64,000 nt of DNA, taken from the NCBI GenBank assembly GCA_038087875.1, contig CM075995.1:5892001-5956000 (forward strand), written 5' to 3'. Shown piece after piece: positions 4,426 to 47,724 of the stretch. Every line of letters begins with the position of its first letter. Position 1 is the stretch's first letter. Origin of the DNA: Malacoraja senta. Taxonomy: Eukaryota. Below the pieces are notes generated by a model. That model was not told the origin of the DNA. It was given only the letters and a program-made list of their open reading frames with translations, and did not search any database. A program made the position numbers and the translations under genes.

Positions 4426-6030
4426 AAAGCATGACTCACAACATGAGTGACACTGATCTACAAATTCTGGTATGAGTTCATCTATAGAAGATAAATCTGC
4501 CTTTCTGTTGAGGAAAATCTTCCTTCTCGGTGGTCTAACTGCTTTGGCTGTCATCTTGGCTTGAACAATAACAGCATCATGGTCCCTTATGCCTGATGTC
4601 ACATTGCAACTTTCTACAAAGGAGGGTTGGCTGGCAAAACATGTCAAGTATATTTCTGTCTCTAGTGGGCTTATCAACCATTTGGGTGAGGTTGAAATCA
4701 TTGGCCGAGTCAGAATCAGAATTTATTCGCCAAGTATGTTTTGCAACATACGAGGAATTTCACTGGCCAGGTCAGTCATACAATTAAGAGCAACAGACTC
4801 AAAAACACATTTTAACATGAACATCCACCACAGTGACTCCTACAGATTCCTCACTGTGATGGAAGGAGAAATAAAGTTTAAGTCCTTCCCTTGTGTTCTT
4901 CCTTGGTCGGGGGCCTCGAGCCTCCATTGACAGGACGGTCTTGACTCCCGTAGCCGGCGGCGTTCGGGCCCTCCATGCCGAGGTGTTCAGCTCCCGCATC
5001 TGGGAGTTGTCAGCTCCCTCGCGCCAGGCGATCGAACCCCGCGTCGGGGCTGGTCGAGCCTTGGTTGGAGTTTCCGACTTGCCTCTCCTGAGACCGTGAG
5101 CCCTTGATGGTAAGTAAGTCCGCAGGCCATGGTGGGAGCGATCCCAGGCAAGGGATCCGCTCCGATGTTAAGTCCGCGCCCCACGGTGGGGCTCACGACA
5201 GCAATGGTAGGCCGCAGAGCTCGGAGAATATGATCCGAAAATCAATCACATCTCCGGGAAGGTAAGAACTTGAAAAAAAGTTTCCCCCGATCCCCCCCAG
5301 CTCCCCCCACATAAAACAAACCGAAGTACATTAAAACAACCTCTTAACAGACGCTAAAAATAACAAAAGATGAAAAAAAAGAACAGACTGGCAGCAGGGC
5401 TGGCCATCTCCCCGGCGCCCCTGGTGGTACATCCAACATAGCAAACAGTACAACAGTAAAACATACAACAGTAAATCCAACATAATCTTGCAACAAGCGG
5501 TATTTCTTCCCCAGTACGAAGAGAATTACTGGACCAGTCTATATCAGGGAGATTAAAATCGCCCAATAGCCATACAGAAGCAGACTTCGGAATCTTGGAT
5601 AAAGAAGCTTCAAGTTTTCTTAAATGTTCCTGTACTGACGATGGAGGGCATTAAAATGTAGGCTTTAGCCCCTTTATATTAATGCTAACCCACAGCACCT
5701 CGCAGTTTGCATCAAGATCTTTTTCTTCAGTAGCAATATACTAATAGTGATGAATACACCCCCCATGAGAGTCCCCTTCCCTGTCTTTTCTAAACACCTG
5801 GTCGAATTTTGGAAATTTTTCACCTGCGGCAATGTCTTTGTTCAACCAAGATTCTGTACCGATTATTATGTCTGGGTTTTCCTTGTCTATAAGAGCCTGG
5901 AATCCTGCTTTCTTTGCTCTAATGCTCTGGTAATTGAGATTAATAATTTTTAAAGTTTCTTGTTTACTATGACCAAACTTCATCCTCTTTGGCTTTGACG
6001 GCCCCGGATTTTCTATTACCACCATTTTTG
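4426..6030 (-). pseudogene. Old LINE (CR1/L2-group) AP-endonuclease remnant, interrupted by a non-coding retroposon
   Basis: APE motifs in the expected order: NLNYQSIR...IIIGTESWL...FRKDR...GG (5741-6025), GDFNLPDIDW (~5560), ...IRDHDAV (~4580). Confidence 0.7.
4710..5427 (-). mobile_element. Non-coding SINE-like retroposon, copy A, (ATTCTG)n tail
   Basis: Similar along its length to 18750-19486. Ends in AATAAA plus a microsatellite tail and interrupts the endonuclease remnant. Confidence 0.75.
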
Positions 6031-6729
6031 CTTTTTTTCAGACTTGTGCTGATCACTGTCTACTATCGGACTAGGGCTAGGTGAAGCTGAGTTAAGACTA
6101 GGTACAATGTCAGAGTCTGCAGATATGTTGAGAAATGTATCCATGTAGCTGTCCAAATGTTTCTTAAACTTTGTGATTGTACCTGCCTCAAGTATATCAT
6201 TCCATGTACCTACCACCCGTTGTGTAAAAAGGTTGCCTCTCAGATTCCTATTAAATCTTTCCCCAATGTTCTCTGGTCCTTGATTCCTTTACTCTGGGTA
6301 AAAGACCCTGTATTTACCCCAGTTATTTATATTGCCCGATCTGTTACAGAGGCCCGAGAGCCGTTGGAGCGGTCGCAGAGGGAGGAGCTACACCCGAGCG
6401 GTAGGGGATAAAGTGGAGCGCGGGGCTTGCTTGTTCCTCACAGAGGCCCGAGAGCCGTTGGAGCGGTCGCAGAGGGAGGAGCCCAAATCTGTAACGTTCC
6501 AAGTTCCACTTCAAAAACAAGTGGGCTTGAGGAAGCCGCTGCTTGGTGGAAGCAGACAAGAGGGAGCAGCTGATTGGGAGTCAGATCCCTGCTGATTGGG
6601 AGTCAGATCCCTGCTGATTGTACTGTATTGTAGCAGTTTGTTTTGTATTGTAGCAGTTTGTTTTGTGTTGTAGCAGTTTGTTTTGTATTGTAGCAGTTTG
6701 TTTTGTATTGTATCCTAGGTAAGGGGAGT

Positions 6730-7665
6730 ATGAGGGCCAGGGCAGTTTACTGTTCTGGATGTCAGATGTGGGAAGTCATGGAGTCTGATAGCCCTCCAGA
6801 CGTCCACATCTGCGCCAGGTGTATCGAGATGGGGCTCCTAATGGACCGTATTAGGAACCTGGAGCAGCAGCTCGATGACCTCCGTCTGGTCAGGGAGAGC
6901 GAGGAAGTCATTGAGAGGAGATACAGGGAGGTGGTCACTCCAAGACCACAGGAGGCAGGCAAGTGGCTCACGGTTGGGAGAGGCAAGGGGCACAGGCAGG
7001 GACTAGAGAGTACCCCGGTGGCTGTACACCTTGACAATAAGTACTCCTGTTTGAGCACTGTTGGGGGGGACAGCCTACCTGGGGGTAGCGACAGCGGCCG
7101 GGCCTCCGGTATAGAGACCGGCCCTGTTGCTCAGAAGGGTAAGGAAAAGAAGAGGAGGGCAATACTAATAGGGGACTCTATAGTTAGGGGGTCAGACAGG
7201 AGATTCTGTGGACGCAGTCGGGAGACCCGGATGGTAGTTTGCCTCCCTGGTGCCAGGGTCTGTGATGTGTCTCAACGTGTCCAAGATATCCTGAAAGGGC
7301 AGGGAGAGGAGCCCGAGGTCGTGGTACATATAGGTACCAATGACATAGGTAAAAAAAGAGAAGAGGTCCTGAAAGGAGAATTTAGGGAGTTAGGAGGGGA
7401 GTTAAAGAGAAGGACAGCAAAGGTAACAATCTCGGGATTACTGCCTGTGCCACGCGACAGTGAGAGTAGGAATGGAGCGAGGTGGAGGATAAATGCGTGG
7501 CTGAAGGACTGGTGCAGAAGGCAGGGATTCAAATTTCTGGATCATTGGGACCTCTTTTGTGGAAGGTGCGACCTGTACAAAAAGGATGGGTTGCACTTGA
7601 ACCTGAGGGGGACCGATATCCTGGCGGGGAGATCTGCAAAGGCTACTGGGGAGACTTTAAACTAG
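6730..7665 (+). CDS. CR1 ORF1p with N-terminal Cys motif, coiled coil and SGNH/GDSL esterase domain
   Basis: Open frame with CSGC...CARC, a heptad region, and SGNH blocks GDSIVRG, HIGTND and DGLH. Confidence 0.88.
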   Translation: MRARAVYCSGCQMWEVMESDSPPDVHICARCIEMGLLMDRIRNLEQQLDDLRLVRESEEVIERRYREVVTPRPQEAGKWLTVGRGKGHRQGLESTPVAVHLDNKYSCLSTVGGDSLPGGSDSGRASGIETGPVAQKGKEKKRRAILIGDSIVRGSDRRFCGRSRETRMVVCLPGARVCDVSQRVQDILKGQGEEPEVVVHIGTNDIGKKREEVLKGEFRELGGELKRRTAKVTISGLLPVPRDSESRNGARWRINAWLKDWCRRQGFKFLDHWDLFCGRCDLYKKDGLHLNLRGTDILAGRSAKATGETLN

Positions 7666-7980
7666 AATGGTTGGGGGGAGCGACTCAAATAGAGAATGCT
7701 ATTAGACAGTGTGTGAGGCAGGAGGCAGAGAAGGAAAGCACTCAGACCCAACATGTAGGGGGGAAAGAAGAAAACAATAATAAACAGAGAATAAGAGGTG
7801 GTGGGGTTCTTAAATGGGTGAGCAGAGAAATAGGGGGTGTAAAATGCGGGCGGAAGCAATAGGTAGTAAGGTGAAAAGTAAAAGTGGCAGGCAGACAAAT
7901 CCAGGGCAAAAATCAAAAGGGCCACTTTTCAACATAATTGTATAAGGGGTAAGAGCGTTGTAAAAACAAGCCTGAAGGCT

Positions 7981-10780
7981 TTGTGTCTCAATGCAAGGAG
8001 CATTCGTAATAAGGTGGATGAGTTGTACGTGCAGATAGCAATTAATGATTATGATATAGTTGGGATCACGGAGACATGGCTCCAGGGTGACCAAGGCTGG
8101 GAGCTGAACATCCAGGGATATTCAATATTCAGGAGGGATAGAGAGAAAGGAAAAGGAGGTGGGGTAGCATTGCTGGTTAGAGAGGAGATTAACGCAGTGG
8201 AAAGGAAGGACATTAGCTTGGAGGATGTGGAATCGGTATGGGTAGAGCTGCGAAACACTAAGGGGCAGAAAACGCTGGTGGGTGTTGTGTACAGGCCACC
8301 TAGCAGTAGTAGTGAAGTTGGGGATGGCATCAAACAGGAAATTAGAAATGCGTGCAACAAAGGCAAAACAGTTATAATGGGTGACTTCAATCTACATATA
8401 GATTGGGTGAATCAAATTGGCAGGGGTGCTGAGGAAGAGGAATTCTTGGAATGTATGCGGGATAGTTATCTAAACCAACATGTAGAGGAACCAACGAGAG
8501 AGCAAGCTATTCTAGACTGGGTATTGAGAAATGAGGAAGGGTTAGTTAGCAGTCTTGCTGTGCGTGCCCCCTTGGCAAGAGTGACCATAATATGGTTGAG
8601 TTCTTCATTAGGATGGAGAGTGACATTGTTAATTCATAAACAACGGTTCTGAACTTAAAGAAAGGTAACTTTGAGGGTATGAGACGTGAATTGGCCAAGA
8701 TTGACTGGCAATTAGTTCTAAAAGGGTTGACGGTGGATATGCAATGGAAGGCATTTAAAGACTGCATGGATGAACTACAAAAATTGTTCATCCCAGTTTG
8801 GCAAAAGAATAAATCAGGGAAGGTAGTGCATCCGTGGATAACAAGGGAAATCAGGGATAGTATCAAAGCAAAAGATGATGCGTACAAATTAGCCAGAAAA
8901 AGCAGCATACCAGAGGACTGGGAGAAATTCAGAGACCAGCAGAGGAGGACAAAGGGCTTAATTAGGAAAGGGAAAATAGATTATGAAAGAAAACTGGCAG
9001 GGAACATAAAAACTGACTGCAAAAGTTTTTATAGATATGTGAAGAGAAAGAGATTAGTTAAAACAAATGTAGGTCCCTTGCAGTCAGAAACAGGTGAATT
9101 GATCATGGGGAACAAGGCTATGGCGGACCAATTGAATAACTACTTTGGTTCCGTCTTCACTAAGGAAGACATAAATAATCTGCCGGAAATAGCAGGGGGC
9201 CGCGGGTCAAAGGAGATGGAGGAACTGAGTGAAATCCAGGTTAGTCGGGAAGTGGTGTTGGGTAAATTGAATGGATTAAAGGCCGATAAATCACCAGGGC
9301 CAGATAGGCTGCATCCCAGAGTACTTAAGGAAGTAGCTCCAGAAATAGTGGATGCATTAGTGATAATTTTTCAAAACTCTTTAGATTCTGGAGTAGTTCC
9401 TGAGGATTGGAGGGTAGCAAACGTAACCCCACTTTTTAAGAAGGGAGAGAGAGAGAAAACGGGGAATTACAGACCAGTTAGTCTAACATCGGCAGTGGGG
9501 AAACTGCTAGAGTCAGTTATTAAAGATGGGATAGCAGCACATTTGGAAAGTGGTGAAATCATTGGACAAAGTCAGCATGGATTTATGAAAGGTAAATCGT
9601 GTCTGACGAATCTTATAGAATTTTTCGAGGATGTAACTAGTAGAGTGGATAGGGAGAACCAGTGGATGTGTTGTATCTGAACTTTCAGAAGGCTTTCGAC
9701 AAGGTACCACATAAGAGATTAGTATACAAACTTAAAGCACACGGTATTGGGGGTTCAGTATTGATGTGGATAGAGAACTGGCTGGCAAACAGGAAGCAAA
9801 GAGTAGGAGTAAACGGGTCCTTTTCACAATGGCAGGCAGTGACTAGTGGGGTACCGCAAGGTTCAGTGCTGGGACCCCAGCTATTTACAATTTATATTAA
9901 TGAACTGGATGAGGGAATTGAAGGCAACATCTCCAAGTTTGCGGATGACACTAAACTGGGGGGCAGTGTTAGCTGTGAGGAGGATGCTAGGAGACTGCAA
10001 GGTGACTTGGATAGGCTGGGTGAGTGGGCAAATGTTTGGCAGATGCAGTATAATGTGGATAAATGTGAGGTTATCCACTTTGGTGGCAAAAACAGGAAAG
10101 CAGACTATTATCTAAATGGTGGCCGATTAGGAAATGGGGAGATGCAACGAGACCTGGGTGTCATGGTACACCAGTCATTGAAAGTAGGCATGCAGGTGCA
10201 GCAGGCAGTGAAGAAAGCGAATGGTATGTTAGCTTCATAGCAAAAGGATTTGAGTATAGGAGCAGGGAGGTTCTACTGCAGTTGTACAGGGTCTTGGTGA
10301 GACCACACCTGGAGTATTGCGTACAGTTTTGGTCTCCAAATCTGAGGAAGGACATTATAGCCATAGAGGGAGTGCAGAGAAGGTTCACCAGACTGATTCC
10401 TGGGATGTCAGGACTATCATATGAAGAAAGACTGGATAGACTTGGCTTATACTCGCTAGAATTTAGGAGATTATTGAGAGGGGATCTTATAGAAACTGAC
10501 AAAATTCTTATGGGGTTGGACAGGCTAGATGCAGGAAGATTGTTCCCGATGTTGGGGAAGTCCAGGACAAGGGGGTCACAGCTTAAGGATAAGGGGGAAA
10601 TCCTTTAAGGCCGAGATGAGGAAAAACGTTTTCACACAGAGAGTGGTGAATCTCTGGAACTCTCTGCCACAGATGGTAGTTGAGGCCAGTTCATTGGCTA
10701 TATTTAAGAGGGAGTTAGATGTGGCCCTTGTGGCTAAAGTGATCAGGGGGTATGGAGAGAAGGCAGGTACGGGATACTGA
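7981..10780 (+). pseudogene. CR1 ORF2 (endonuclease + reverse transcriptase), several frameshifts
   Basis: Split across ORFs 7981-8652, 8679-9680, 9662-10240, 10282-10608 and 10529-10780. Confidence 0.92.
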
Positions 10781-11542
10781 GTTGGATTGATCAGCCATGA
10801 TCATATTGAATGGCGGTGCAGGCTCGAAGGGCCGAATGGCCTACTCCAGCACCTATTGTTCTATGTATCTATGTATCTATGTTACCCTATCTATGTTTGA
10901 TAAAACGGTAATCTCTGAGAATGTGTCTTCATTATCCATGCCCCCACTGCTTGCTCAAACTAATCAGCGTGTTTCATGTGGTTTCTCTGACAGTTTGTTC
11001 TCTGCTTAGTGGCTTACAGTTGCATGCAATTCAGAGCTGTGCAGCTATTACCATTTTAGCATCTGAGCAATAGTTGCGACAAATTGTGAACAGAGCAGTT
11101 TGTTTTGTGCAGCGTGTGATCTCTTCAGAATTTTATATAGTTTATCTTGGAATAGCCCTGTGAAAATTATCGGGAATACTGGATATCGCTCAGTTCCTCA
11201 CCCCAGTCATTGACTATTCTAGGACCCCTATGGCGGTTTCCACACTGCTCAGCCATCACTCGCGAGCAGGAGAGATCGAGTGATTGGCCTTCACAGATGT
11301 TGGTGATGCCTGTCTTGCAGTCTCTCCAAAACAATTTTTTAATCTAAATTCGTCACCTATTCGATCAGACACTCAAGTTTTGGACTGTGATTAGCGTCTT
11401 CTGCACTAATTATACAGATATATTTATCAGCCCACATTAATTGAAATGGACTAATCCAGTGGAACTATAAAACTGAGGAGTAAGTGTGAAAACAGCTTTC
11501 AGTTGAGGGATATGGAGGTTAGGGTTATGATACAATACAATA

Positions 11543-12185: not shown

Positions 12186-12309
12186 TAAGTTGCACATTTT
12201 CAGAAATATATACGTTGGTTCTACGGCCATTGGTTGAGTGGAACAGGCTACAAACAGCAACCGTGCTAATGGATGGTCAGTCTAATGCCCAGCCCATCAC
12301 CACCCTAAT

Positions 12310-12852
12310 GGCCCTGTCCCACGGGCAGGCGGTTACTGGCGGTGACGCGCGGTGTAGCAGGAAGTTGGGACCGCACGTGGACCGCCAGGGGACCGCGCAT
12401 GGCCCGCGGGATCGGTCCCACGCAGATCGCCGGAACCGTATGTAGTTGGTCCTGACATCGCGCGCGGTGCTCAGAAAAACTGACACTGTCCAAAAATCTC
12501 GGCCTGCCGCCCAGCCGCCGCCTCTTCACCGCGAGCACCGCCTGTACGCCACGAGCACCGCCTATACGCCGCAAGCACCGCCTGTACGCCGCGAGCCATC
12601 TCGACGTCATCACCCGACGCCACGCTCGCCGCATGCATTCGCATGCTCGTGGGACAGGCCGTACGGTAAACACTCGGCCTCCGCGTGGCATACCGCTTCC
12701 GGTTAGGTTGCGCTTGCCGCATGCTCATGGGACCGGCCCGTACGGTGAACACTCGGCCCCCCATGCGGCACTCCCGCGGTAGCCGCCCGGTCCCCCGCTT
12801 CCGGGGACGCCGCGCTTCACCGCCTGTTACCGCCTGCCCGTGGGACAGGGCC
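12310..12852. mobile_element. GC-rich MITE, PIF/Harbinger-like
   Basis: TIR GGCCCTGTCCCACGGGCAGGCGGT at both ends, extending imperfectly for ~60 bp. T/A flanks (TAAT left, TTA right). No coding motifs. Confidence 0.8.
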
Positions 12853-12948
12853 TTACATGCTGCCAAAGATTTGTTTCACTGTTTCTAAATGTTTGATAGT
12901 TTGAAACATTTTAAACAGTTGAAACTAAATATCTTTTTAGTATATATA

Positions 12949-15772: not shown

Positions 15773-15894
15773 TATCCTTTGAAACACTAACCTAACCACA
15801 AACCCCTGCATTTTTATGTTTTTAGTTTAGTTTCTTAATTAACTGAGCCAAACCCACCTTTTTTTATTAAGGTTGGCAATCTCAATGGTTTGGG

Positions 15895-18675: not shown

Positions 18676-18749
18676 CAGAGAACATAAAACAGTACACCAC
18701 AGGAACAGGCCCTTTCTGCCCACAATGTTTGTGACAAACATAATACGAA

Positions 18750-19486
18750 GGGGCTTCGGGGAGATGGCCAGCCATGCCGGCAGTCTGTTCGTTTTTTCAC
18801 CTTTTTGTTATTTTAGCGTCTGTTAAAAGTTGGTTTTAATGTTCTTCGGTTTGTTTTATGTGGGGGAGGGGATCGGGGGAAACTTTTTTTCAATTTCTCA
18901 CCTTCCCGGAGATGTGATCAATTTTCGGATCACATTCTCCGGGCTCTGCGGCCTACCATCGATGGAGCTGGGAGCCGCATCGGATTGTCATGAGCCCAAC
19001 CGCGGGGCGCGGACTTAACGTCGGAGCGGATCCCTTGCCTGGGATCGCTCCCACCGCGGCCTGCGGACTTACCATCAAGGGCTCGCAGTCGCAGGAGAGG
19101 CTAGTCGGGAGCTCCAACTCCGCAGAAGGTTCGTCCAGCCCCGACGTGAGGTTCGATCGTCCAGCGCGGGGAGCTGACATCCCCCCCGATGCGGGAGTGG
19201 ATCGCCTCGACGCGGAGCGCCCGAACGCCGCCGACTACGGGAGTCAAACCCGTCCCGTCAACGGAGGGCTCGAGGCCCCCGACCGAGGAAGAACAAAAGG
19301 AAGAGACTTGAAATTTATTTCGCCTTCCATCAGTGAGGAATGTGTAGGAGTCACTGTGGTGGATGTTCATGTTAAAATGTGTTTTTGAGTGATCTGTTGC
19401 TTTTAATTGTATGACTGACCTGGCCAGTGAAATTCCTCGTATGCTGCAAAACATACTTGGCGAATAAAATCTGATTCTGATTCTGA
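18750..19486 (+). mobile_element. Non-coding SINE-like retroposon, copy B, inserted in a CR1 3' UTR
   Basis: Paralog of 4710-5427. Ends AATAAAATCTGATTCTGATTCTGA. The minus-strand CR1 3' UTR continues on both sides (18675-18749 and 19487-19830). Confidence 0.78.
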
Positions 19487-20092
19487 ACTGATCTCATCTG
19501 CCTGTACATGATCCATATCCCTCTATTCCCTGCTCTTCCATGTGCCTATCTAAAAGTCTCTTCAACATCACCATCTAAGCTGCCTCCACCACCACCCCAG
19601 ACAGCGCGTTCCAGACCCCCACCACCCTCTGTGCAAAAAAACTTGCCCCACACATCCATTAACCTTTCCCCCTCTCACCTTATAGCTATGCCCTCTAATG
19701 TTGAACATTCTCACCCTGGGAAAAAGGTTCTGACTGTCTACCATTTCCCTATATTATGCCTCATAATTTTATATACTTCCATAATTTTTCCCCTCAAGCT
19801 CTGACATTCCAGAGAAAACAATCCAAGTATAATTGGGGACATTTTATGGATGTTCCCGCTGCAATCCCATCGCAGTAGAGCGCCAACTGTATATATCTAT
19901 CGCATATAGTTATCACCACTATCGCTAGGACTCCTCATCTATTCTAGCTGGTGAACAGTAGGGATCACTCCCAACTACCAGTACAACTTAGTGGTGAGTA
20001 GGAATAGCTTTAAATTCTTACACTCCAAAGGAATTAAGTGATCAATGAACCTTGCAGGGCAACTTACCGTTGTAACAAAGAACATGGTCAGG

Positions 20093-21613: not shown

Positions 21614-21628
21614 TGGCGACGAGGATGG
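21614..21628 (+). promoter_or_regulatory. Primer-binding site TGGCGACGAGGATGG (tRNA-Ser GCT-like)
   Basis: Directly follows the 5' LTR. Complementary to ...CCATCCTCGTCGCCA. Confidence 0.8.
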
Positions 21629-23156
21629 CTAGTTTAACTCTTGCTGCCCGATCTCCATTCTTGGAAAGTCCAGGAGAACCTCCTGTACCATGGACACGAT
21701 GGTTCGAAAGTTTCACCACATACTTATCGCAAGCAGCCTGGAAGGCGAGGTCCTAAGCTTGCCGCCGAGCGATCCTGCTGCATTGCCTCAGAACGGAGGG
21801 ACAGCGGATCTTCGCGCAGTTTGACAGTGCTGCAACGAGTAAGTACAGTGATGCTGTTATTGCACTTGGCAAATATTTTGGCCCAAAGTGTGATGATAGA
21901 GAGATACCGTTTTCCTCAACATTCACAGGGGCATTCAGAAACAGTAAAAAAACAATCGCTCAAACAAGCAGTGACTGAATTGTGGCCGGACACACGCTCC
22001 CAAGGAATGACCAGCTTACGGTAAACGGTGCAACGCGTGTTCAAAGCTGAATCACTTCGTGAAAGTCTGCCGGTCGTCGAAGAAGAAAGTGTCATCTGTC
22101 CTCCATGTAGACGATGAATCTCCGGGTGGACACGACGTATACTCCATAAAGGACAGGGCTGACCAGGATGTTCGGTCAACAGGTGCTTTCAAAGACTGCA
22201 GGGTCGAGATCGCTGGGACCTCGGTATCGCTTCTCATAGATGTGGGGACGAAGGTTTCTATTTTGAGCATAGATCTCTACAATAGGTCTTTTTCGGACTA
22301 CCCACTTGCTCCCCCAAGGGACACTCTTCGCTCTTATGATGGTTCAACCATACCGACGATAGGGCTAGTGACTGTTCCTGTTTTCTACAAACGAGTTAAG
22401 CTCGATAGCTTCACATTCTATGTCGCAGAAGGAAAGAGTCTGATGGGAGTCAATCTGTTTGATCGACTAGGTTTCAAGCTTCAGGACTCAACCGGCACGA
22501 ACATCAATGTGATCAGCGACGCGGACTTTGGGCATGAATATCCTTCCCTTTTCTCTGGTTTTGGGGTAGTTAAAGGTACTGCCACGCACCTCGTGTAGAC
22601 ACATCAGTCCCGACTGTTTCACAACGCCTAAGGCATCTACCATTTTCCATTCGCTCGGAAGCTTCAACTGAACTGAAGCTACTCGAAAATTATGGCAACA
22701 TTGAACGCATCGATTCATCCCCTTGGATATCGAATGTTGTCATCGCGCAACGCAAGAACGGTGAACTCAGACTTTGCATCGATCTCAAATCGGTCAACAA
22801 ATCCATCATTCCGGACAAATATCCTTTGCCAACAATGCAAGAGCTATTTGCATCGTTCCACAGTTCAACAGTGTTCACAAAACTAGACATGCGCCGAAGC
22901 TACCTTCAGGTACCACTAGCAGAACACAGTCGAGAGTTGACAGCTTTCCTCACACATGAAGGAATATTTCAGTACCGTAGGATGCTGTATGGACTGTGCT
23001 CAGCGCCTAGTGCATTTCAAAAAATCGTGACGTTGGTTCTGTCAGGCATTGACGGAACACTCAACCTCCTCGACGATGTCGTCATCCATGTCAGGGACAG
23101 GAGGAACACGATTGACAACTGGATGCAGTGTTAGCTCGTCTCGCACAACACAACTT

Positions 23157-26118
23157 TCAATTCAATTCAATTCAATTCAACTTTAATGTCATTGCACAAA
23201 TACTGAGTATGGGTACAACGAAATGCAGTTTTGCGTCAGTCCGTAGTAGTAGTAGTGCAATATAGAAATTTTATTTAAAAAAAAATTTAAAAAGAGGATA
23301 CAGAATAATCAAAAATACAGAATAATTAACAATGGGGACGGAGGGACCGGAGGAATCGATCGGCGGGACTCCGAGTTCAGCAATGCGACGGTATAATTGT
23401 AGAAGCTGTTCCTCATCCTACTGGTACGAGACCTGAGGCTCCTGTACTGCCTCCCTGATGGGAGGAGGGCAAACAGTCCATGGTTGGGGTGGGAGGGGTC
23501 TTTAATGATCTTCCCAGCCCGTTTCAGACACCGTTTTCGGTGGAGGGCATCCATGGCAGGGAGCGGGGCACCGATGATGTGCTGCGCGGTTTTCACCACC
23601 CGTTGTAGTGCCTTCCTGTCCGCAACAGTGCAGCTGCTGTACCATACCGTGAAGCAGGTGGTCAGGATGCTCTCGATGGTACACCGGTAGAAGTTGGTCA
23701 GGATCTGGGGGGACAGGTGGGCTTTCTTGAGCCTCCTCAGGAAGTAAAGGCGCTGCTGTGCCTTTTTGATCAGCTTGGAGGTGTTGAGGGACCAGGACAA
23801 ATCCTCCGAGATGTGTACCCCGAGGAATTTGTAGCTGGAGACGCGCTCCACCTCAGTCCCGTTTATATGGATGGGGGTATGTCTGGCCCCTCTGACCTTC
23901 CTGAAGTCGACAATAATTTCCTTCGTCTTCTTGGAGTTGAGGACGAGGTTATTGTTGGCACACCAGGTTGTCAGGTGCTGGACCTCCTCTCTGTAGGCTG
24001 ACTCATCGTTGTCACTGATCAGTCCTACCACCGTGGTGTCGTCAGCAAACTTAATGATGGCGTTGGATCCGTACTTAGGGATGCAGTCGTGGGTGAAGAG
24101 GGAGTAGAGGAGAGGGCTGAGCACACAGTCCTGTGGAACAGTGTTATAATGGAGGAGGTGAGGTTGTTGACCCTAACAGACTGTGGTCTGTTGGTGAGGA
24201 AATCCAGTGTCCAGTTGCAGAGGGAGGTGGAGATGCCAAGCCCGCTGAGTTTGGTGATCAAGCTGGCGGGGATGACAGTGTTAAAAGCGGAGCTGAAATC
24301 AATGAACAGCAACCTGATGTAGGAGTTCTTGTTGTCCAGGTGGGTCAGGGCAGAGTGTAGGGCCGCCGATATGGCATCCTCTGTAGACCTGTTGGCCCGG
24401 TAGGCAAACTGATGGGGGTCCAGTGTGGGGGGGGAGGCTGGCTTTGAGGTGAGCCAAGATCAGCCGCTCAAAGCACTTAGCAATGACAGGGGTGAGTGCC
24501 ACTGGGCGGAAATCGTTGAGGCTCCCTGTGGCTGACTGTTTGGGCACTGGCACGATGGTTGATGTCTTGAGGCAAGTGGGGACAACACCCTGGGCCAGTG
24601 AGAGATTGAAAATGTCGGTAAAGACTGGGGATAGTTGTCCAGCACATGCCCTAAGCACCCGGCCAGGGATGCCATCGGATTCCTTGCCACATGCGCCTGG
24701 GGTCAGAGTTGTTTTGGAAGTGCTCCTCAATCCGCCGTTTGTGATTGAGTTTGGCATTCCTAATTCCCATTTTCAGATTGGCCCTGGATGAGCTGTATCC
24801 CTCAGCGTCGCCAGATCTGAAAGCGGCATCGCGAGCCTTCAGTAGGAGTCTGACCTCCCTGCTCATCCACGGCTTCTGGTTAGGGAAGGTCTTTATTTCT
24901 TTGTGGGTAGTGACATTATCGGTGCAGAATTTTATATAGTCCATAACTGTTGAGGTGTATGAGTTGATGTCCACTTGTGAATTGAAGGTGGACTGAGTAG
25001 CAAACAGACTCCAGTCTGTCTGCTGAAACTGCTGCTGTAAAACAGAGACAGCCCCCTCAGGCCAGACCTTCACTGTCCTCGTGGTAGGTTTCACACGTCT
25101 GATCAGAGGTGTGTATTTGGGGAGCAGGAACAGAGAGAGGTGGTCAGACTGACCAAGGTGGGGGAGGGGGAGGGCTTTGTAGGCTTCAGTAATATTAGTG
25201 TAAACTAAGTCCAGAATATTGTTTCCTCTGGTTGGGCAGGAAACATGCTGATGGAACCTGGGGAGTACAGTTTTAAGGTCGGAGTGGTTGAAATCACCCG
25301 CAACAATAAATGCCCCCTCAAGGTGAGCAGATAGATGTTTGCTGATAGCAGCTTGCAGCTCTTCCATTGCTAGCCTGGCATTAGCGTCCGGGGGTACATA
25401 GACTGCCGTGATAACAGTCAATGTGAATTCTCTGGGCAAATAGAAGGGCCTGCACTTTAACATCAGGTATTCCAGGTCAGCAGAGCAGTGACTACCAATC
25501 CTAACAACGTCCGTGCACCATGTGTTATTCACATAGATGCACAGTCCGCCGCCCTTGGTCTTACCGGAGTCCTCCGCTGTTCTGTCGGCCCTGAAGACAG
25601 TGCGCCCCTCCAGCTCGATGGCGTTGTCCGGGATGTTGCCGTTGAGCCATGTTTCAGTAAAGACCATGGCGTTGCAGTCGGCGATCCGTCTGTGTGTGGT
25701 GATCCGCAGCCTTAGTTCATCGATTTTACTCACCAGGGACTGGACACTCGCGAGGAAAATGCTGGGCAGAGCTGGCTGGTGAGGATTTAATTTCAGCCTA
25801 GCTAGATGTCCTCCCCACTTCCCACGTCTTTGTTTGCGGTCCCTACGCCGCCTCCGGGCACTTCCTGTCGGGGGAGCTGGCCCGCTAGACCACGGTGTCC
25901 TGGCGATCTCCGGCGGCAGTTGAAAGTCGCTTCTGGGGCTCGTTACGCAGAGACGGCCGAGCTCTAATAGCTCCTGACGGCCGTATAGAGTCTTCGCTCG
26001 GGTGCTCCGGGCGAAAACGAAGGTAATTATTAACAGAAAAATAACTAAATTACAAAAACTACGGAGACGCAGAGCCTCGCGTTGTGCACGCGACGCCATC
26101 TTGTGTTTATGTGGCAAG
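23157..26118 (-). mobile_element. Rex1/Babar LINE, apparently with both ends, nested in the Gypsy 2 RT
   Basis: APE ORF 24651-26117 (FTETWL, GDFN, SDH), RT ([12 protein letters not shown]) and an (ATTGA)n tail. CAACTT is duplicated at 23151-23156 and 26119-26124, and removing the insert restores Gypsy LAQHNLTLNAAKC. Confidence 0.93.
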
Positions 26119-28393
26119 CAACTTGACGCTCAACGCAGCAAAGTGTACATTTGCAGCATCCGAGATCAATTTTCTCGGGTACAGACTGGACAATGTCCAA
26201 GCCATCAACGCGCTCCCCACCCCAACTGACGTGAAAGAGTAAGCTTCATTTCTGGGCACCACCAACTTCTACCGCAAGTTCGTGCCGCAGTACGCGCAGA
26301 TCGCAGAATCGCTACAGAAGTTGCTACGGAAAGACACACAGTGGGAATGGACAAGTGAGCAGGACATCGCGTTCAACACGCTGAAAGACAAAATAGCATC
26401 TCCGCCTGTTCTCGCGCACTTCGACCCAAGTGCTGAAACGTATGTCACAACAGACGCTTCCTGTATCGCGATCGAAGCGGTGTTATCGCAGTGCATCGAT
26501 GCAAGCGAACAACCGATCGCATTTGTGTCCCGTCCCTTGACTGCAACCAAACGCAAGTACTGCACCAGGGAACGCGAAGCATTAGCGTGCATCTACGCGT
26601 GTGAACACTGGCACGTATACCTATACTCTCCGTACGGATCACCAAGCGCTGACTACGTTACTGGACATGTCAGGCTCACGACATCGCCCGCTCCGGATCT
26701 ACAGATGGTCCGATCGCCTTCATCAGTACAACTTCGAAGTTGAATACCTCGCAGGTTCATGCAATCGCATCGTAGACATGCTCAGTCGCGTCCCAACATG
26801 ACACCCACACGTACACGCGATAGCGACGCTTCAAGCAACATCGACTACTACATTCTCGCGGTGATTTCGCACGCGATGACGAATCTAGTAACGCGGGAAG
26901 AGCTGAAAGCAGAGTCGACAGCTGACAGCACACTGCAAACCATCTGCCAGTATCTCGACTGACTGGCCCAAGGAGATAGCAGACGACTTTGTTCCGTACC
27001 ACCGGGTACGCCACGAACTGGCAGTGTTTGACGATACATGTGTCACGCGCGGAACTCGAGAGGTTATACCCAAATCACTGCAACACCGCGTGTTACAACT
27101 GGCACATGAAGGACACCCGGGCGTTGATAAGATGAAACAATGGTGTCGCGAGGCAGTGTGGTGGCCAGCAATAGATCGTCGCGTAGATTTAGTCAAAAAT
27201 TGTGAAGCATGCACAATTAGCAAGAAGTCAACAAAACCACGTCCTGCTCCTCTTCAGCCAATCCCATGGCCGGCCAAACCATGGAAGCACTTGCAAGTCG
27301 ACATCTTCGGAGAGGTGCAAGCTATGCCAAGAAGCCAGCGGTTTCTACTTGTAGTACATGATCTCCACAGCAAGTGGCCTGAGATCGCAACTACTTCTTC
27401 TGTCACGACAAGCTCGATCATCGCGATTCTCGAAAAGCTGTTTACCAAGTGGGGACTGCCGGAGGTCATAACGACAGACAACAGCCCACAGTTCATATCT
27501 GAACAGTTCTCCACCTTCCTTGCGAGGTACGACATTCAACATCAGCGGACGTCACGATACAACCCCCAATTGAACGGCGGGGTTGAACGATTCAATTGCG
27601 TGATCAAAGAAAGCATAAAAGCGAGCATGTCGGAGGGGAAAACATTCGAACAGTCAATCCATATCCTCCTCCGATCCTACAGATCCACACCGCACAAGCT
27701 GACTGGGAAAACGCCAGCAGAGCTGATGATAGGGCGAAAAACATGCGAACGAAACTGAATGCTCTTCAATCAACATCGCACCCAAATCCAGACACAAAAG
27801 CGAGGGCGGAAACGATAGCACACAGACAAGCGAAAGGGAAAGCGTACTGTGATGCCAAACGCAGAGTACGAGTGCCGCGGTTCAAGGTCAGTGACTGGGT
27901 ACGAATCAGCCGCCCAAACAGACAGCATAAGCTCGCAAGCGCACTCTCAAAGCCAATACAGATCAAATGGTGACTCGGCAAGAACGTGTACCTCCTCCAA
28001 GACGACACCAGACGGAGGCGAGGCGTCTTATCGCAAGCAGACAGAGACAGGAAGAAGACGAACCGGACGCTTTTCCTTTCCCGATATCCAGTCAAGACAG
28101 CGATCGCGGTCAGCATACAGCAGAGCAGCCAAATCCCAGCTTGACTCTCTCAGCGACAGAAGAGGAGACCTCAGTATCTGCAAGATTTTCAGCTGTGAAG
28201 CTATAAACAGTTATATTCACTGAGCAGTTATTTTTTTGGACTTCCGTTTATTAATAGAGGACATGAAATTTGAAAGGACGTTGGACTGATTTCATATGGA
28301 CTTATATTTGATTTGATAACTGGACTTAAATGATCACCTTCATTTACAAGGAGGGGTAAATATGTTGTGTCTGGGTAAGACTGTCCGTACAGT

Positions 28394-28685
28394 TGATAAT
28401 TGCTCGTTTCTAAGCTTCCCCCCCAGTCTAGTTTCAGTAAAAACACTGAATCAAGCACTTGAATCAACTAAATTTTATTTTACCAAAAGCGCATCACAGA
28501 TCACACACTGTACCTATCCCACTGCGGGTTCGACCCCTGCGTCTATCTGTTCAAGCCCTCTAGGCCTCACGCAGGCAGAAGCACTCCAGAAGCTCTTCCA
28601 GATGATCGACCCTGAGCCTCGTGACCACGGACTTTTATATACCCTGCAAACTCGAGGGCCAAACCACACGGGGGTTGTCTCTTAA
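28394..28685 (-). repeat. Possible retroviral-type LTR fragment
   Basis: Starts TGATAA exactly where the Gypsy 2 3' LTR stops. The minus strand has TATATAAAAG (~28635), AATAAA (~28475) and ends in ...TATCA. Confidence 0.4.
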
Positions 28686-28849
28686 AGGCCTGTCTCACGA
28701 GTCTGCGGACATTGGCGGCGAAACAGGAACTATCTACCGCTCCTGGGCCGCCAGAGACCGCGGGCTCGGTCAAACGCACAATTCAGGGGCCGTGTGGCGT
28801 TGTTCCCAACACCGCATGGTGCTAAAAAAAAACAACACTGTCCAAAAAT

Positions 28850-29203
28850 ATGTTCCTACCACACAGCCGCCGCCAGTGAGGCACGAGTGCGGCACGGTCA
28901 CCGCCACAGCCGCCGCCAGTGAGGCACGAGCGCCGTGAGTCGAACCTGCACCGCCACAGCCTCCGCCAGTGAGGCACGTGTGCGGCACGGCCGCCGCCAC
29001 AGCCGCCGCCGGAGGAAAGACGCATCTCCGACCAGATAGGGACTGAGAAAAAACAGTCTCCCCTTACCCCCCCCCCCCCCACCACCCCCCACATAAAAAG
29101 ACTAGACCTCCAAAACAAAACTTTTTAACATACTAAAAATAAAAAGAAGGGTGAAAGGACGAACAGCTCCAGGCTGGGCAGCCATACTCGATGGCGGCCG
29201 CAC
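28850..29203 (-). mobile_element. Non-coding retroposon, copy C (5' part only)
   Basis: GC head, T tract, G tract and GC body as in copies A and B. Internal repeat CCGCCAGTGAGGCACG occurs three times. Confidence 0.5.
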
Positions 29204-29857
29204 AAGAGAGTGGCATAACATAAAACTACAGTGAATGGGCGATTGATAGTCGGCATCGACAGTGGACCGAAGGGCATGTTTCCATGCTGTATCTCTCTAA
29301 ACTCTCTCCCGAAGATCTCCCTTCAATCTCTAATGCTCCAGATGAAACAATCCAAGTTTGTCTAACCTCTCCTTATAGTCTGAAGAAGGATCTCGACCCG
29401 AAGCGTTGCCCATTCCTTCTCTCCAGAGATGCTGCCTCACCCGCTGAGTTACTCCAGCATTTTTTGTCTCTCCTTATCGCTAATACCCTCAATCTGGGCA
29501 GCATTCCAGTAAACCTCTTCTGCATCCTCTCCAAAGCCTTCACATTCTTACTATGATGAGGCGACCAGAACAGCATATAACACTCCAAATGCAGTCTATC
29601 CAAAGTTTTATAACATGACTTCCTGACTCTTATACTCAATACTCCTAAAGATGAATTTTGCATAAATAATACAGACACTCGCAAATTCTGCAAGACAAAA
29701 ATAATGGGAAGCCTGCACAGAAAAACTGGACATATGTGCAAAATACAATTAGAAAAATCAAGTCCATGGTAGTATTAGAGGTGGTCCGTAATGTTCAAGG
29801 TACAAGCTGGTACTAATGGACCGACTGGGCTTATATTCACTGGAAAAATGGATCAAA

Positions 29858-32600
29858 TGAAACATAGAAACGAAACATAGAAAATAGGTGCAGCAGGAGG
29901 CCATTCGGCCCTTCGAGCCAGCACCGCCATTCATTGTGATCATGGCTGATCGTCCCCTATCAATAACCCGTGCCTGCCTTCTCCCCATATCCCTTGACTC
30001 CACTAGCCCCTAGAGCTCTATCTAACTCTCTCTTAAATCCATCCAGTGACTTGGCCTCCACTGCCCTCTGTGGCAGGGAATTCCATAAATTCACAACTCT
30101 CTGGGTGAAAAAGTTTTTTTCTCACCTCAGTCTTAAATGACCTCCCCTTTATTCTAAGACTGTGGCCCCTGGTTCTGGACTCGCCCAACATTGGGAATTT
30201 TTTTCCTGCATCTAGCTTGTCCAGTCCTTTTATAATTTTATTTGTCTCTATAAGATCCCCCTCATCCTTCTAAACTCCAGTGAATACAAGCCTAGTCTTT
30301 TCAATCTTTTTTTATTTTATTTATTTATCATTATACTTATGGGCGCCTTTCAAAGGCTCTCAAGGACGCCTTGCAGATAAGCAGATTACAAAACATATAA
30401 GCAGAATAAAAAATAAAAAAAAATAGTAGGGACATCAACAACATCACAATACACAAATTAAGGACAGAATTCATTCCAAAGGCACAAAAAAGAAAATCAG
30501 AAACAATTTGAGGCGAGTGCAGCGGCAGCTAAACCGCGCCAGCGTCCACTCTCCCCTCCGACCGCTATCTTGAACACAGACCAACAAAGACACAGCACAC
30601 AAAAATCATCCCCCCACAATGATTACCACTGTGGGGGAAGGCACAATGTCCAGTCCCCAACCCCAGTTCACCCAAAGTCAGGCCTATTGAGGCCTCCGCT
30701 ATTGCCTCTACGGAGGCCCGATACTCCTGTCCGTTTTCACTGGGTGATGTTGCCCCAGCGCCAGGAGAGTCCACTCAGCGGCTGGGCCACCTGGAACGGC
30801 CGCATTCCTTACCGGAGGCCGCGGCTTCCGAAGCCGACAAGGCCGCGCCGGTTTGGAGCTCCCAGGCTCCCGATGGTGAAGTCGGCGCCGCCCACTCTTC
30901 TCCGCAGACCCGCAGCCCGGAGGTGTCGAACGCACGGTCACAGCTCACCAGAGCTCTAGCGCGGCGACCCAGGCAAGGCATCGCCCGCTCCGCTCCGCGA
31001 TAGCGCTCCAGCGCTGTGCCGCCACCGAAGCCGAGGTGCTGGGCGGCCCCCGCCAGGAAACGGCGCTCCAAGCCCGCTGGTAGGCCACGAGGAAGGGTCG
31101 ACGGGGCAGCCCGGAGAAAAAGCTGCCTCACCGACCTAGAAATGAGGTTACCCCCTTCACCCCACATTAAAAGTCGGATTACTCCCACAGGACAAACGCA
31201 GGACTCACTAAAAACTATTAAAAAAGTGAATTAAACGGACGGCTGCTGATTAGCAGCCGTCCCCCAAGATCCTCCCTCATATGACAGTCCCGCCATCCCA
31301 GGGATCAATCTCGTGAACCTACGCTGCACTGCCTCAATCACAAGGATGTCCTTCCTCAAATTAGGAGACCAAAACTGTACACAATACTCCAGATGTGGTC
31401 TCACCAGAGCCCTATACAACTGCAGAAGAACCTCTTTACTCCTATACTGAAATCCTCTTGTTATGAAGGCCAACATTCCATCAGCTTTCTTCACTGCCTG
31501 CTGTACCTATAAGCCAACTTTCAGTGACCGGTGTCTCGCTGCACCTCCCCCTTACCTACCCTAACCCCATTGAGATAATAATCTGCCCCTTGTTTTTGCT
31601 GCCAAAGTGGATAACCTCACATTTATCTATATTATACTGCATCTGCCACGCATCTGCCCACTCACTCAACCTGTCCAGGTCACCCTGCAACCTCCTAACA
31701 TCCTCTTCACAGTTCACACTGCCACCCAGCTTTGTGTCATCCGCAAACTTGCTATTGTTGCTCCTAATTCCCTCTTCCAAATCATTAATATATATGGTAA
31801 ACAGTTGCGGCCCCAACACCGAGCCTTGCGGCACTCCACTCGCCACTGCCTGCCATTCTGAAAAGGACCCGTTCGCTCCTACTCTTTGCTTCCGGTCTGC
31901 CAACCAATTTTCTATCCACGTCAACACCCTAACCCCAATACCATGTGCTCTAATTTTAGTCACCAGTCTCCCATGCGGGACCTTATCAAAGGCTTTCTGA
32001 AAGTCTAGATACACTACATCCACTGGCTCCCCTTCATCCATTTTACTTGTCACATCCTCAAAAAACTCCAGAAGATTAGTCAAGCATGATTTCCCTTTCA
32101 TAAATCCATGTTAACTCGGATTAATCCTTTTACTGCTATCCAAACGCCCCATTATTACCTCTTTAATAATTACCTTTTACTGCTATCCAAACGCCCCATT
32201 ATTACCTCTTTAAAACTCCAGCATCTTTCCCACCACCGGTCAGGCTAACTCGTCTGTAATTCCCCGTTTTCTCTCTCGCTCCTTTCTTGAAAAGTGGGAT
32301 AACATTAGCTATCCTCCAATCCACAGGAACTGATCCTGAATCTATTGAACATTGGAAAATGATCACCAATGCATCCACTATTTCTAGAGCCACCTCCCTG
32401 AGGACCCTGGGATGCAGACCATCAGGCCCAGGGGATTTATCATCCTTCAGTCCTATTAGCCTACCCAATACTATTTCTCGCCTAATGAAAATATCTTTCA
32501 GTTCCTCTACCCTCTTAGATCCTCTGTCTTCCAGTACATCTGGGAGATTGTTTGTGTCTTCCTCAGTGAAGACAGTGAAGTACCTATTCAACTCTTCTGC
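29858..32600 (-). mobile_element. CR1 LINE, 5'-truncated, interrupted by retroposon D
   Basis: RT ORFs 32202-32591, 31556-32101 and 31231-31494, plus the 3' end at 29858-30308. The sequence is continuous across the insertion. Confidence 0.92.
30309..31270 (-). mobile_element. Non-coding retroposon, copy D, with an L2-type 3' tail
   Basis: Minus-strand 3' end GCAAGGCGTCCTTGAG...GAAAGGCGCCCATAA followed by (TAAA)n. Interrupts a CR1. Confidence 0.7.
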
Positions 32601-32684
32601 CAGAATGGGCTTATATTCACTGGAATAATAGATCGACTGGGCTTATATTGACTGGAATTTAGGATGAGAGGGGATCTTATAGAA

Positions 32685-35600
32685 GCAATAGAAAGGAAGG
32701 ACATTAGCTTGGAGGATGTGGAATCGATATGGGTAGAGCTGCGAAACATTAAGGGGCAGAAAACGCTAGTGTGTGTTGTGTACAGGCCACCTAACAGTAG
32801 TAGTGGAGTTGGGGATGGCATCAAACAGGAAATTAAAAATGCGTGCAACAAAGGTAAAACAGTTATAATAGGTGACTTCAATCTACATATAGATTGGGTG
32901 AATCAAATTGGCAGGGGTGCTGAGGAAGAGGATTTCTTGGAATGTATGCGGGATAGTTTTCTAAACCAACATGTAGAGGAACCAACGAGAGAGCAGGCTA
33001 TTCTAGACTGGGTATTGAGTAATGAGGAAGGGTTAGTTAGCAGTCTTGTTGTGCGTGGCCCCTTGGGCAAGAGTGACCATAATATGGTTGAGTTCTTCAT
33101 TAGGATGGAGAGTGACATTGTTAATTCAGAAACAAGGGTTCTGAACTTAAAGAAAGGTAACTGAGGGTATGAGATGTGAATTGGCCAAGATTGACTGGCA
33201 ATTGATTCTTAAAGGGTTGACGGTGGATATACAATGGAAGGCATTTAAAGACTGCATGGATGAACTACAACAATTGTTCATCCCAGTTTGGCAAAAGAAT
33301 AAATCAGGGAAGGTAGTGCATCCGTGGATAACAAGGGTAATCAGGGGTAGTATCAAAACAAAAGATGAAGCGTACAAATTAGCCAGAAAAAACAGCCTAC
33401 CAGAGGACTGGGAGAAATTCAGAGTCCAGCAGAGGAGGACAAAGGGCTTAATTAGGAAAGGGAAAATAGATTATGAAAGAAAACTGGCAAGGAACATAAA
33501 AACTGACTGCAAAAGTTTTTATAGATATGTGAAGAGAAAAAGATTAGTTAAAACAAATGTAGGTCCCTTGCAGTCAGAAACAGGTGAATTGACCATGGGG
33601 AACAAGGACATGGCAGACCAATTGAATAACTACTTTGGTTCTGTCTTCACTAAGGAAGACATAAATAATCTGCCGGAAATAGCAGGGGACCGCAGGTCAA
33701 ATGGGATGGAGGAACTGAGTGAAATCCAGGTTAGCCGGGAAGTGGTGTTAGGTAAATTGAATGGATTAAAGGCCGATAAATCCCCAGGGCCAGATAGGCT
33801 GCATCCCAGAGTACTTAAGGAACTAGCTCCAGAAATAGTGGATGCATTAGTAATAATTTTTCAAAACTCCTTAGATTCTGGAGTAGTTCCTGAGGATTGG
33901 AGGGTAGCTAATGTAACCCTACTTTTTAAAAAGGGAGGGAGAGAGAAAATGGGGAATTACAGACCAGTTAGTCTAACATCGGTAGTGGGGAAACTGCTAG
34001 TCAGTTATTAAAGATGGGATAGCAGCACATTTGGAAAGTGGTAAAATCATTGGACAAAGTCAGCATGGATTTACGAAAGGTAAATCATGTCTGACGAATC
34101 TTATAGATTTTTTGAGAATGTAACTAGTAGAGTAGATACATTGTTGGCGGCGCTGTCGAACAGCAGCGGCTCGCCTGCAGTCCGTCTGTTTTTACTTTTT
34201 TTGTTGTTTTCTTTTGTCCTGTTTTATTTAAATTTTAGTTTATTGGGTTGTGTATGTGTGGGGTGGGGGGGTGAAACATTATTTTTGTCTCTTCCTTCGG
34301 GGGAATGCGACTTTTTCTTGTCGTATCCCCCTTCTCTGCCTCCGTGTGCGCCGAGGCCTAATGGCGGAGCTGCCGGCCTCCAACTCCAACTGCGAGCGAC
34401 CGACCTCGAAGCTCCGGAGGCAGAGCCAGGACTTACCAGCGCGGGGCTGGCCGGCTTCGGGGCTGTGGTGGCGACCGAGGACACTGGTGGCGACCTGAAT
34501 CTGTAGGCTCGGCCGCGGGCCCGGTGGACGACATCGTTGGGAGCTTGCAGGTCACAGGTGGGTGACCTGTTTTTCTGGAGCTCCCGCAACTACAGCTGCG
34601 TCCGCTGGACTGGAGGGCGGCAGCTTCGGCAGCTTCGGCCACCCCGGGCCGCGGAGTTTGAACCGGCCCATCGCGGAGCACGGATTCAGCCGCGGGATTG
34701 ACTTACCATCACCCGGCGGGGTCACAACATCAGAAGCCTGGATCGCCTCGGCGCAGAGGAAGAACAAAGCGGGAAGAGACAGAGACTTTAAGACTTTTGC
34801 CTCCATCACAGTGAGGAGGTGCCTGGTGAACTCACTGTGGTGGATGTTAATTTGTGTTTATTGTGTGTTTTGTTATTTATTATTATATGTATGACTGCAG
34901 GCAACGAAATTTCGTTCAGACCGAAAGGTCTGAATGACAAATAAAGGAATCTCTAATCTCTAAGATAAGGGAGAACCAGTGGATGTGTTATATCTGGACT
35001 TTCAGAAGGCTTTCGACAAGGTCCCACATAAGAGATTAGTATACAAACTTAAAGCACACGGTATTGGGGGTTCAGTATTGATGTGGATAGAGAACTGGCT
35101 GGCAAACAGGAAGCAAAGAGTAGGAGTAAACGGGTCCTTTTCAGAATGGCAGGCAGTGACTAGTGGGGTACCACAAGGCTCAGTGCTGGGACCCCAGCCA
35201 TTTACAATATATATTAATGATTTGGACGAGGGAATTGAATGCAACATCTCCAAGTTTGCGGATGACACAAAGCTGGGGGGCAGTGTTAGCTGTGAGGAGG
35301 ATGCTAGGAGGCTGCAAGGTGACTTGGATAGGCTGGGTGAGTGGGCAAATGCATGGCAGATGCAGTATAATGTGGATAAATGTGAGGTTATCCACTTTGG
35401 TGGCAAAAACAGGAAATAGACTATTATCTGAATGGTGGCCGATTAGGAAAAGGGGAGATGCAACGAGACATGGGTGTCATGGTACACCTGTCATTGAAAG
35501 TAGGCATGCAGGTGCAGCAGGCAGTGAAGAAAGCGAATGGTATGTTAGCATGCATAGCAAAAGGATTTGAGTATAGGAGTAGGGAGATTCTACTGCAGTT

Positions 35601-47723: not shown

Positions 47724-47724
47724 A

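Follow-up and report, generated by a model that had tools for sequence, protein, structure and literature searches.

The question raised by this locus is whether a set of GC-rich, non-coding stretches lying among other repeats are copies of a single retroposon superfamily, and whether that superfamily has changed its partner long interspersed nuclear element (LINE) by exchanging 3′ tails. The locus is a 64,000-nt stretch of the Malacoraja senta genome (GenBank assembly GCA_038087875.1, contig CM075995.1, positions 5,892,001 to 5,956,000 of the forward strand), hereafter the window, and positions are counted from its first letter. According to the excerpted text of bioRxiv 10.64898/2026.10.27.761883, the genome of the host lineage, which belongs to the basal jawed vertebrates, consists of >60% repeats; the window is likewise composed almost entirely of repeats (CR1, Rex1-type, gypsy, short interspersed nuclear elements [SINEs], a DIRS-like piece, and a satellite). 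On balance, we consider it probable that elements A, B, E, and D and the head of C belong to one old non-coding, non-autonomous, LINE-dependent superfamily, probably driven by RNA polymerase II (Pol II), in which one tail exchange took place. The copies are as follows.

4707..5424, minus strand: element A, full length, ca. 718 nt, family AB (84% identity to B over 751 alignment columns)
18749..19487, plus strand: element B, full length, ca. 739 nt, family AB (BLAST to A)
28998..29203, minus strand: C, head only, with GC hairpin, T-tract, and G-tract (nhmmer profile of A/B/E, E value 6.7e-10 over 29196-29018)
28660..29000, no strand assigned: unrelated GC-rich repeat fused to the C head (aligns with 12300-12860)
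30310..31274, minus strand: element D, 965 nt, remote member with a differing 3′ third, inserted in CR1 (global alignment z 3.8–5.8 against A, B, and E)
34139..34963, plus strand: element E, 825 nt, inserted in CR1 (BLAST and nhmmer)

A, B, D, and E have in common a GC head, a T-tract, a G-tract, and a CpG-rich body, and BLAST and composition confirmed this layout together with the strands and coordinates given in the initial annotation. The observed/expected CpG ratio of the elements was 0.78–1.06 compared with 0.66 for the window, and the body between head and hairpin measured 350–440 nt. Positions 25-721 of B aligned to E by nhmmer (E value 1.9e-24), while BLAST connected E to A/B only over 95–147 nt around the hairpin (71–75% identity). 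In global alignment, B and E scored z 8.9, which none of 200 block-wise dinucleotide shuffles reached. C, which had been annotated as a partial copy, has ca. 200 nt of head in common with the superfamily and nothing beyond; its supposed GC-rich body belongs to the unrelated repeat. A short module, G(G/A)C(C/T)TA(C/A)CA, which comes near to an antisense 5′ splice site, occurred once or twice per body and always in sense orientation; written as G[AG]C[CT]TA[AC]CA, a motif picked after inspection, it had 7 of its 9 window matches inside A, B, D, and E, all in sense. A YY1-like word was present in the heads of A and B only. The U1-like word ACTTACC was rejected as a signal since it had 58 matches in the window.

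To evaluate the membership of D, global alignments were compared with 200 block-wise dinucleotide shuffles per pair that preserved the layout of head, T-tract, G-tract, and body. D scored z 5.1 against B, 5.8 against E, and 3.8 against A, and no shuffle reached any of these scores; all 12 control pairs with other GC-rich stretches of the window fell between z -1.3 and 1.8. The colinear chain of 8-mers between B and D scored 77, and neither the B-D nor the E-D chain was reached by any of 300 shuffles. The words TTCTCCGGGCT, GGCCTACCA, CGGAGCGGA, CCTTGCCTGGG, and GGGAGCTCCAA are common to D and A/B/E and occur in the same order. By segment, z was 1.7–3.9 for the head and 2.3–3.5 for the hairpin; local alignments of D reached z 2.8–4.1, at the edge of chance. 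The part of D behind the hairpin did not align with that of A or B (z -0.7 and -0.2) and scored 2.8 against the T-rich stretch of E. The claim that the copies align beyond their composition is thus upheld for A, B, and E by BLAST or nhmmer, but for D only by global alignment against shuffles, ordered motifs, and the hairpin.

A subterminal hairpin had been described as common to A, B, D, and E. Its core, CACAGTG..CAYTGTG, was found at three loci in 64 kb, all of them in A, D, and E, compared with an expectation of 0.01 from 100 shuffles. Because this pattern was derived from the A, D, and E copies themselves, D provides the only near-independent test of it.

4824..4863, minus strand: hairpin of A, 13-bp stem, core CACAGTG/CACTGTG, 122 nt from the 3′ end (pattern and fold)
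30609..30639, minus strand: hairpin of D, same core, 5-nt loop, 305 nt from the 3′ end (fold z -2.46)
34802..34844, plus strand: hairpin of E, 14-bp stem, 125 nt from the 3′ end (fold z -2.94)

When D and A were aligned on the core, all five differing pairs (5/5) still paired. One change was two-sided (A-T to C-G), and the others were one-sided (T-G to C-G, G-C to G-T, T-A to T-G, and A-T to G-T); covariation could not be assessed from so small a set of three informative sequences. Owing to G-U pairs, the sense strand of the hairpin was ca. 5 kcal/mol more stable than the antisense strand. The B copy lacks 2 nt of the hairpin and folds no better than shuffles (z 0.17), so the hairpin is common to A, D, and E but not to B as it stands in the window. 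The missing CA was present in 241 of 324 RNA reads; therefore, family AB has an intact hairpin. Reading the CACAGTG arms as V(D)J recombination signals was rejected by eye, there being no correctly placed nonamer.

The 3′ tails of A/B, E, and D are of three types, as originally described. These tails and the LINE used as a reference for tail type are listed below.

4707..4785, minus strand: tail of A, with a stem-loop, AATAAA, and (ATTCTG)n (homologous to the E tail, z 4.4)
34885..34963, plus strand: tail of E, Rex1-type, with ATTTCGTT, a GAAA stem-loop, ATGACA..TAAA, and (AATCTCT)n (motif and shuffles)
30310..30600, minus strand: 3′ module of D, with a second GC hairpin and T-tract (ca. 30572-30480), a GGCGTCC..AGGCGCC stem, and (TAAA)n (z against other tails)
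23170..26104, minus strand: near full-length, frameshifted Rex1-type LINE with endonuclease (EN), reverse transcriptase (RT), and ALKBH8_N matches

The A/B tails aligned with the E tail at z 4.4–4.6 (0/1000 shuffles) and differ from it solely in the terminal stem-loop and the microsatellite. Since these tails are homologous, A/B and E represent the drift of one tail lineage without a swap, and the earlier view of swapped LINE tails holds only for D, whose tail was unrelated to those of A (z 0.5) and E (z 1.6). The motif ATTTYRTT..ATGACA..TAAA was found at four places, one of them in E and the other three at Rex-type LINE ends; tblastn tied these LINE pieces to the EN-RT element at 23170-26104. 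The E tail scored z 2.7–3.5 against these three ends, and the link of A/B to a Rex1-type tail runs via E only. We label the reference LINEs Rex1-type provisionally, by the layout of their domains and not by phylogeny. No L2 element was identified in the window for comparison with the D tail.

We then examined insertion and abundance by read mapping over 18600-35100 at 85% likeness, using one poly(A) RNA run (X21, of which ca. 6% was read) and three contig sets (X1, X3, and X7). Runs X19 and X20, whose shares were small, did not enter the analysis. Empty sites were found for D, with CR1 copies joining 30309 directly to 31275 in 161 RNA reads and in 28–50 contigs per run, and for E, with a joint from 34133 to 34965 in two contigs per run. 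E is flanked by copies of GATA (34135-34138 and 34964-34967), a target duplication of 4 nt, and its empty-site paralog in the window, the CR1 at 6330-10880, is uninterrupted near 9650 and has a single GATA there. This CR1 is near full length, with an esterase-type first open reading frame (ORF1; Lipase_GDSL_2, E value 2e-13), EN, and RT. At A, B, and D, no clear target duplication was seen. A interrupts an old LINE on the minus strand within its endonuclease region, with the host-frame motifs GDFN and PTR..ILD on its two sides, and B lies antisense within a repeated LINE-type 3′ end. At the 5′ junction of A (5425-5470), a 10-nt host word is duplicated around ca. 35 nt of filler, which suggests an error-prone 5′ join. 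Summed contig depth was 1e5–1e6 for the elements, 1–4e3 for the gypsy interior, and 30–60 for low-copy pieces, depth not being equal to copy number. In X1, E had a depth of 1.08M near its 5′ end and 1.37M near its 3′ end, indicating little 5′ truncation, and the depth of the Rex-type LINE fell from ca. 144k to ca. 2–5k toward its 5′ end; in X7, the head of E was 4.6-fold below its 3′ part. As discrete and highly abundant insertions that have fixed ends, show little or no target duplication, and carry a LINE-type 3′ end (stem-loop plus microsatellite), the elements qualify as non-long terminal repeat retroposons.

The elements have no protein-coding capacity. Pfam gave no match in any of the five element frames scanned, the reading frames of A and B differ by indels, and of the 23 and 244 candidates retrieved in protein searches with frames of E and D, respectively, none proved homologous. 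The longest frame of B, searched against 1.84 billion proteins, had two matches (228 and 165 aa), one predicted from the skate Rhinoraja longicauda and the other a contig frame. The translations from the skate gene model and the contig show the same module order and represent independent copies. In the skate gene model LOC144607144, which has two isoforms, the AB body module is encoded twice in tandem, possibly by exonisation, unless the gene is mispredicted. The hairpin and tail patterns had no match in JGI metagenomes or in viral contigs; 16-mer matches at eight viral loci were discarded as chance, none of the eight having the upstream arm.

The absence of a tRNA-type head with A and B boxes, and the T-runs that speak against RNA polymerase III (Pol III), were also borne out. 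ARAGORN found no tRNA in the elements, and no Rfam family (including tRNA, U1, telomerase RNA, and ribozymes) reached its gathering score; weaker Rfam scans gave eight matches at chance level (E values 0.9–5) and no tRNA, 5S, or 7SL. Every head contains several runs of four or more T, with 4–8 of them within the first 200 nt, which disfavors Pol III. In X21, sense:antisense counts were 810:78 for the 5′ bin of B, 631:86 for a bin wholly inside D, and 1333:127 for the 5′ bin of E. For the 3′ bins of B, D, and E, which include flanking repeats, the ratios were 1.5:1, 4:1, and 3:1, respectively, and the controls gave 1.4–2.8:1 (CR1 bins) and 2.5:1 (Rex 3′ bin). RNA depth rose toward the head (3304 versus 1244 in E), a gradient more in keeping with a promoter in that region than with poly(A) capture at the tail. 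RNA per DNA depth, a rough measure, was 8–100 at element points (one outlier, 618) compared with 1–4 at CR1/Rex points. The element RNA is mostly sense-strand and polyadenylated. Because this poly(A) RNA is sense-biased and 5′-weighted and the heads carry T-runs, Pol II transcription of the elements is plausible. A possibly Pol II-transcribed, SINE-like superfamily, as first proposed, survives in part, the elements being non-coding, multi-copy, LINE-dependent, and free of a tRNA-type head.

Under the superfamily reading, a CpG-rich internal promoter in the head would drive Pol II transcription of the whole 0.72–0.97 kb unit, and a CR1-group LINE would supply the ORF2 protein that binds the 3′ stem-loop and microsatellite, after which the bound RNA would be copied by target-primed reverse transcription. 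A/B and E would use a Rex1-type tail that has since drifted into two forms. In the D branch, everything downstream of the hairpin would have been replaced, via template switch or recombination, by a module of ca. 300 nt with an L2-like tail, resulting in a change of partner. Lying directly 5′ of the exchange point, the hairpin may have been kept at the RNA level for a partner-independent role, and it offers a direct test of which RNA parts a LINE parasite needs besides the tail. More tentatively, and with somewhat less than even confidence, we propose that in skates and rays the elements may form a new SINE-like superfamily, transcribed by Pol II from a CpG-island promoter and equipped with a partner-independent hairpin, which moved between Rex1 and L2 and seeds promoters and exons genome-wide. 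The sense, 5′-weighted RNA and the one possibly exonised copy in a skate gene model suggest such a scattering of CpG-island promoters.

Several observations weigh against the single superfamily with one tail exchange. BLAST and nhmmer did not match D to A/B/E (best E values 0.59–6.2), the body of D gave only a modest z of 2.2–2.5 that was reached by 6–9 of 300 shuffles, the heads of A and D aligned at z 1.7, and 2 of 300 shuffles reached the A-D 8-mer chain. The depth of D in X1 was very uneven (2.35M at 30985 and 33k at 30761), which points to an atypical middle part or to a mosaic structure of D. The hairpin window of A had a fold z of -1.33, which alone is not significant. The tail exchange is known from a single copy, D, and no joint of a body to another tail was present among the 15 joints listed of >10,000 (10,646 further). 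The tail of D scored z 2.5 against one Rex tail (14/1000; one of six comparisons), and its likeness to fish L2 ends is presumed from the tail pattern. The proposed alignment of the tails to resident Rex1 ends succeeded in the window for E but not for A, which gave z 0.5–0.9 and no direct match. Finally, X21 may come from a species other than that of the window, LINE controls served to infer its library orientation, and its mapped reads showed no sharp RNA start.

These weaknesses leave room for other explanations, of which one retains the working mode and changes the ancestry: the elements would be ORF-less bipartite deletion derivatives of autonomous CR1-group LINEs, with head and body being a 5′ untranslated region (UTR) that holds a Pol II promoter, and hairpin and tail being a 3′ UTR. 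They would then be LINE derivatives and not an independent superfamily. The Rex-type LINE at 23170..26104, which has ca. 100–200 nt of 5′ region ahead of its reading frame, likewise opens with a GC hairpin and a T-tract, and against its 5′ end, the only full-length candidate in the window, the head of B scored z 3.1 (3/1000) and that of A z 2.2. However, the heads of C, D, and E did not follow (z -0.3 to 0.7), this LINE has neither body nor hairpin (whole-element z 0.3–1.8), and the hairpin core is absent from the window outside A, D, and E. In favor of the derivation, the 3′ module of D itself resembles a second head plus tail, its surplus of ca. 180 nt looking by eye like another GC-hairpin/T-tract head, although this second head matched neither the Rex-type 5′ end nor the other heads (z ≤1.9). 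Against it, both protein matches of the B frame are too short for a LINE ORF2, although untranslated parents would be invisible to such a search. Pol II probably transcribes bipartite LINEs, from which SINE bodies can arise, yet ORF-less forms are listed only for RTE, Ingi, Vingi, and R2 (PMC5786205, 2018). We regard this derivation as unlikely, though it deserves serious consideration.

Convergence, in which AB/E and D would be independent families that each acquired a CpG-island promoter, a T-tract, and a hairpin without any tail exchange, draws on the failure of BLAST and nhmmer to match D, on the body z of only ca. 2.2–2.5, and on the choice of motifs after inspection. It is difficult to reconcile with whole-element scores that 0/200 shuffles reached in three pairings while the 12 control pairs were null, with a hairpin core common to both whose pairing is preserved, and with 9–11-mers common to both in the same order, and we consider it improbable. 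The elements could also be Pol III SINEs whose small-RNA head is eroded or unrecognised, or retrocopies of host non-coding RNA fused to LINE ends, for which a B-box-like 9-mer in the body of D and similar words with one mismatch in A, B, and E might be cited. This word has 12 matches in the window, however, and sits ca. 350 nt inside D; an A-box match occurs in none of the elements, 4–8 T-runs fall in the first 200 nt, and no tRNA, 5S, 7SL, or small nuclear RNA match appeared even at E values up to 5–10, so that we give this explanation hardly any weight.

Other features of the window are described here for context. The GC-rich repeat of 12300-12860 and 28660-29000 has inverted ends and resembles a miniature inverted-repeat transposable element. 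The bin 28518-29068 was 30–150 times deeper in X1 than in X3 or X7 (depths of 8e5 in X1, 6e3 in X7, and 3e4 in X3 for the repeat joined to C), hinting at a lineage-specific burst. A gypsy-type element at 21430-28400 is split by the Rex1-type LINE at 23170-26104. At 61612-62760, a Rex1-type piece without an RT match has its endonuclease region joined almost directly to the C-terminal end and tail, and is an internally deleted copy. A degenerate DIRS-like element was recognized by eye at 36990-40330, none of its scanned frames having a Pfam match, and where this fragment ends, an 18-bp tandem repeat begins that totals ca. 7.4 kb (40334-43015 and 48525-53264) and contains long open frames, whose Pfam matches (Cytadhesin_P30 and LED_rpt) are probably compositional. 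Embedded in this satellite is a provirus-like remnant (43015-48524, minus strand) whose two long terminal repeats of ca. 800 nt are 98% identical; it gave weak matches to RNase H and the integrase zinc-binding domain and has lost most of its coding sequence.

How do the skate elements compare with known retroposons? They are interspersed, non-tandem, and 718–965 nt long, within the <1 kb given for SINEs and above the stricter <700 bp wording, both in the excerpted text of PMC3531059. The same text defines a SINE by Pol III transcription and by a head that shares 60% or more of its sequence with tRNA, 5S, or 7SL across 60 nt; the heads here show no such small-RNA origin as SINEBase uses (PMC3531059), and therefore the elements are not SINEs by this definition, though working alike. 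The available excerpts of the literature held no description of this skate family or of such a head, and automated Dfam/Repbase entries may well exist. The exchange of SINE tails has been described (PMC5786205) and is already known for tRNA SINEs; a non-tRNA, CpG-rich head on such elements was not found in the literature searched.

In the excerpted text of PMC3747384, CORE-SINEs use RSg-1, CiLINE2, or UnaL2 as partners and DeuSINEs use RSg-1 or CR1-4_DR, while the shark and ray families HE1 and SacSINE1 have small-RNA heads. As far as these excerpts describe them, CORE-, Deu-, and V-SINEs, HE1, and SacSINE1 resemble the skate elements in being non-coding and LINE-dependent with a conserved internal part and varied LINE tails. 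In contrast, these families have tRNA or 5S heads, Pol III promoters, and a domain just behind the head, none of which the skate elements possess; the latter measure 0.72–0.97 kb and carry Pol III-terminating T-runs and a subterminal hairpin, a distinction made by description and not by sequence. The loop of D also differs from the GGAUA loop described for UnaL2/HAmoL2 in the excerpted PMC2653535. Two bird SINE families have GC-rich heads of unknown origin and bipartite RTE tails (excerpts of PMC7245038 and PMC5786205); they share with the skate elements a GC-rich non-tRNA head and an unproven transcription mechanism, but those excerpts describe neither a common hairpin nor Rex1/L2 partners for them. 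RIME, NARTc, Bov-A, RTE-N, and Vingi-N are, like the skate elements, non-coding, probably Pol II-transcribed, and trans-mobilised, with a LINE-like head and a LINE tail (PMC5786205). The skate elements differ from these bipartite LINEs in their Rex1-type and L2-like tails, in a body of 350–440 nt, and in that no parent 5′ UTR was found in the window. If true, a superfamily of 0.7–1 kb with Rex1- and L2-type partners would widen the range of ORF-less Pol II parasites beyond the four LINE clades listed in the 2018 survey (PMC5786205).

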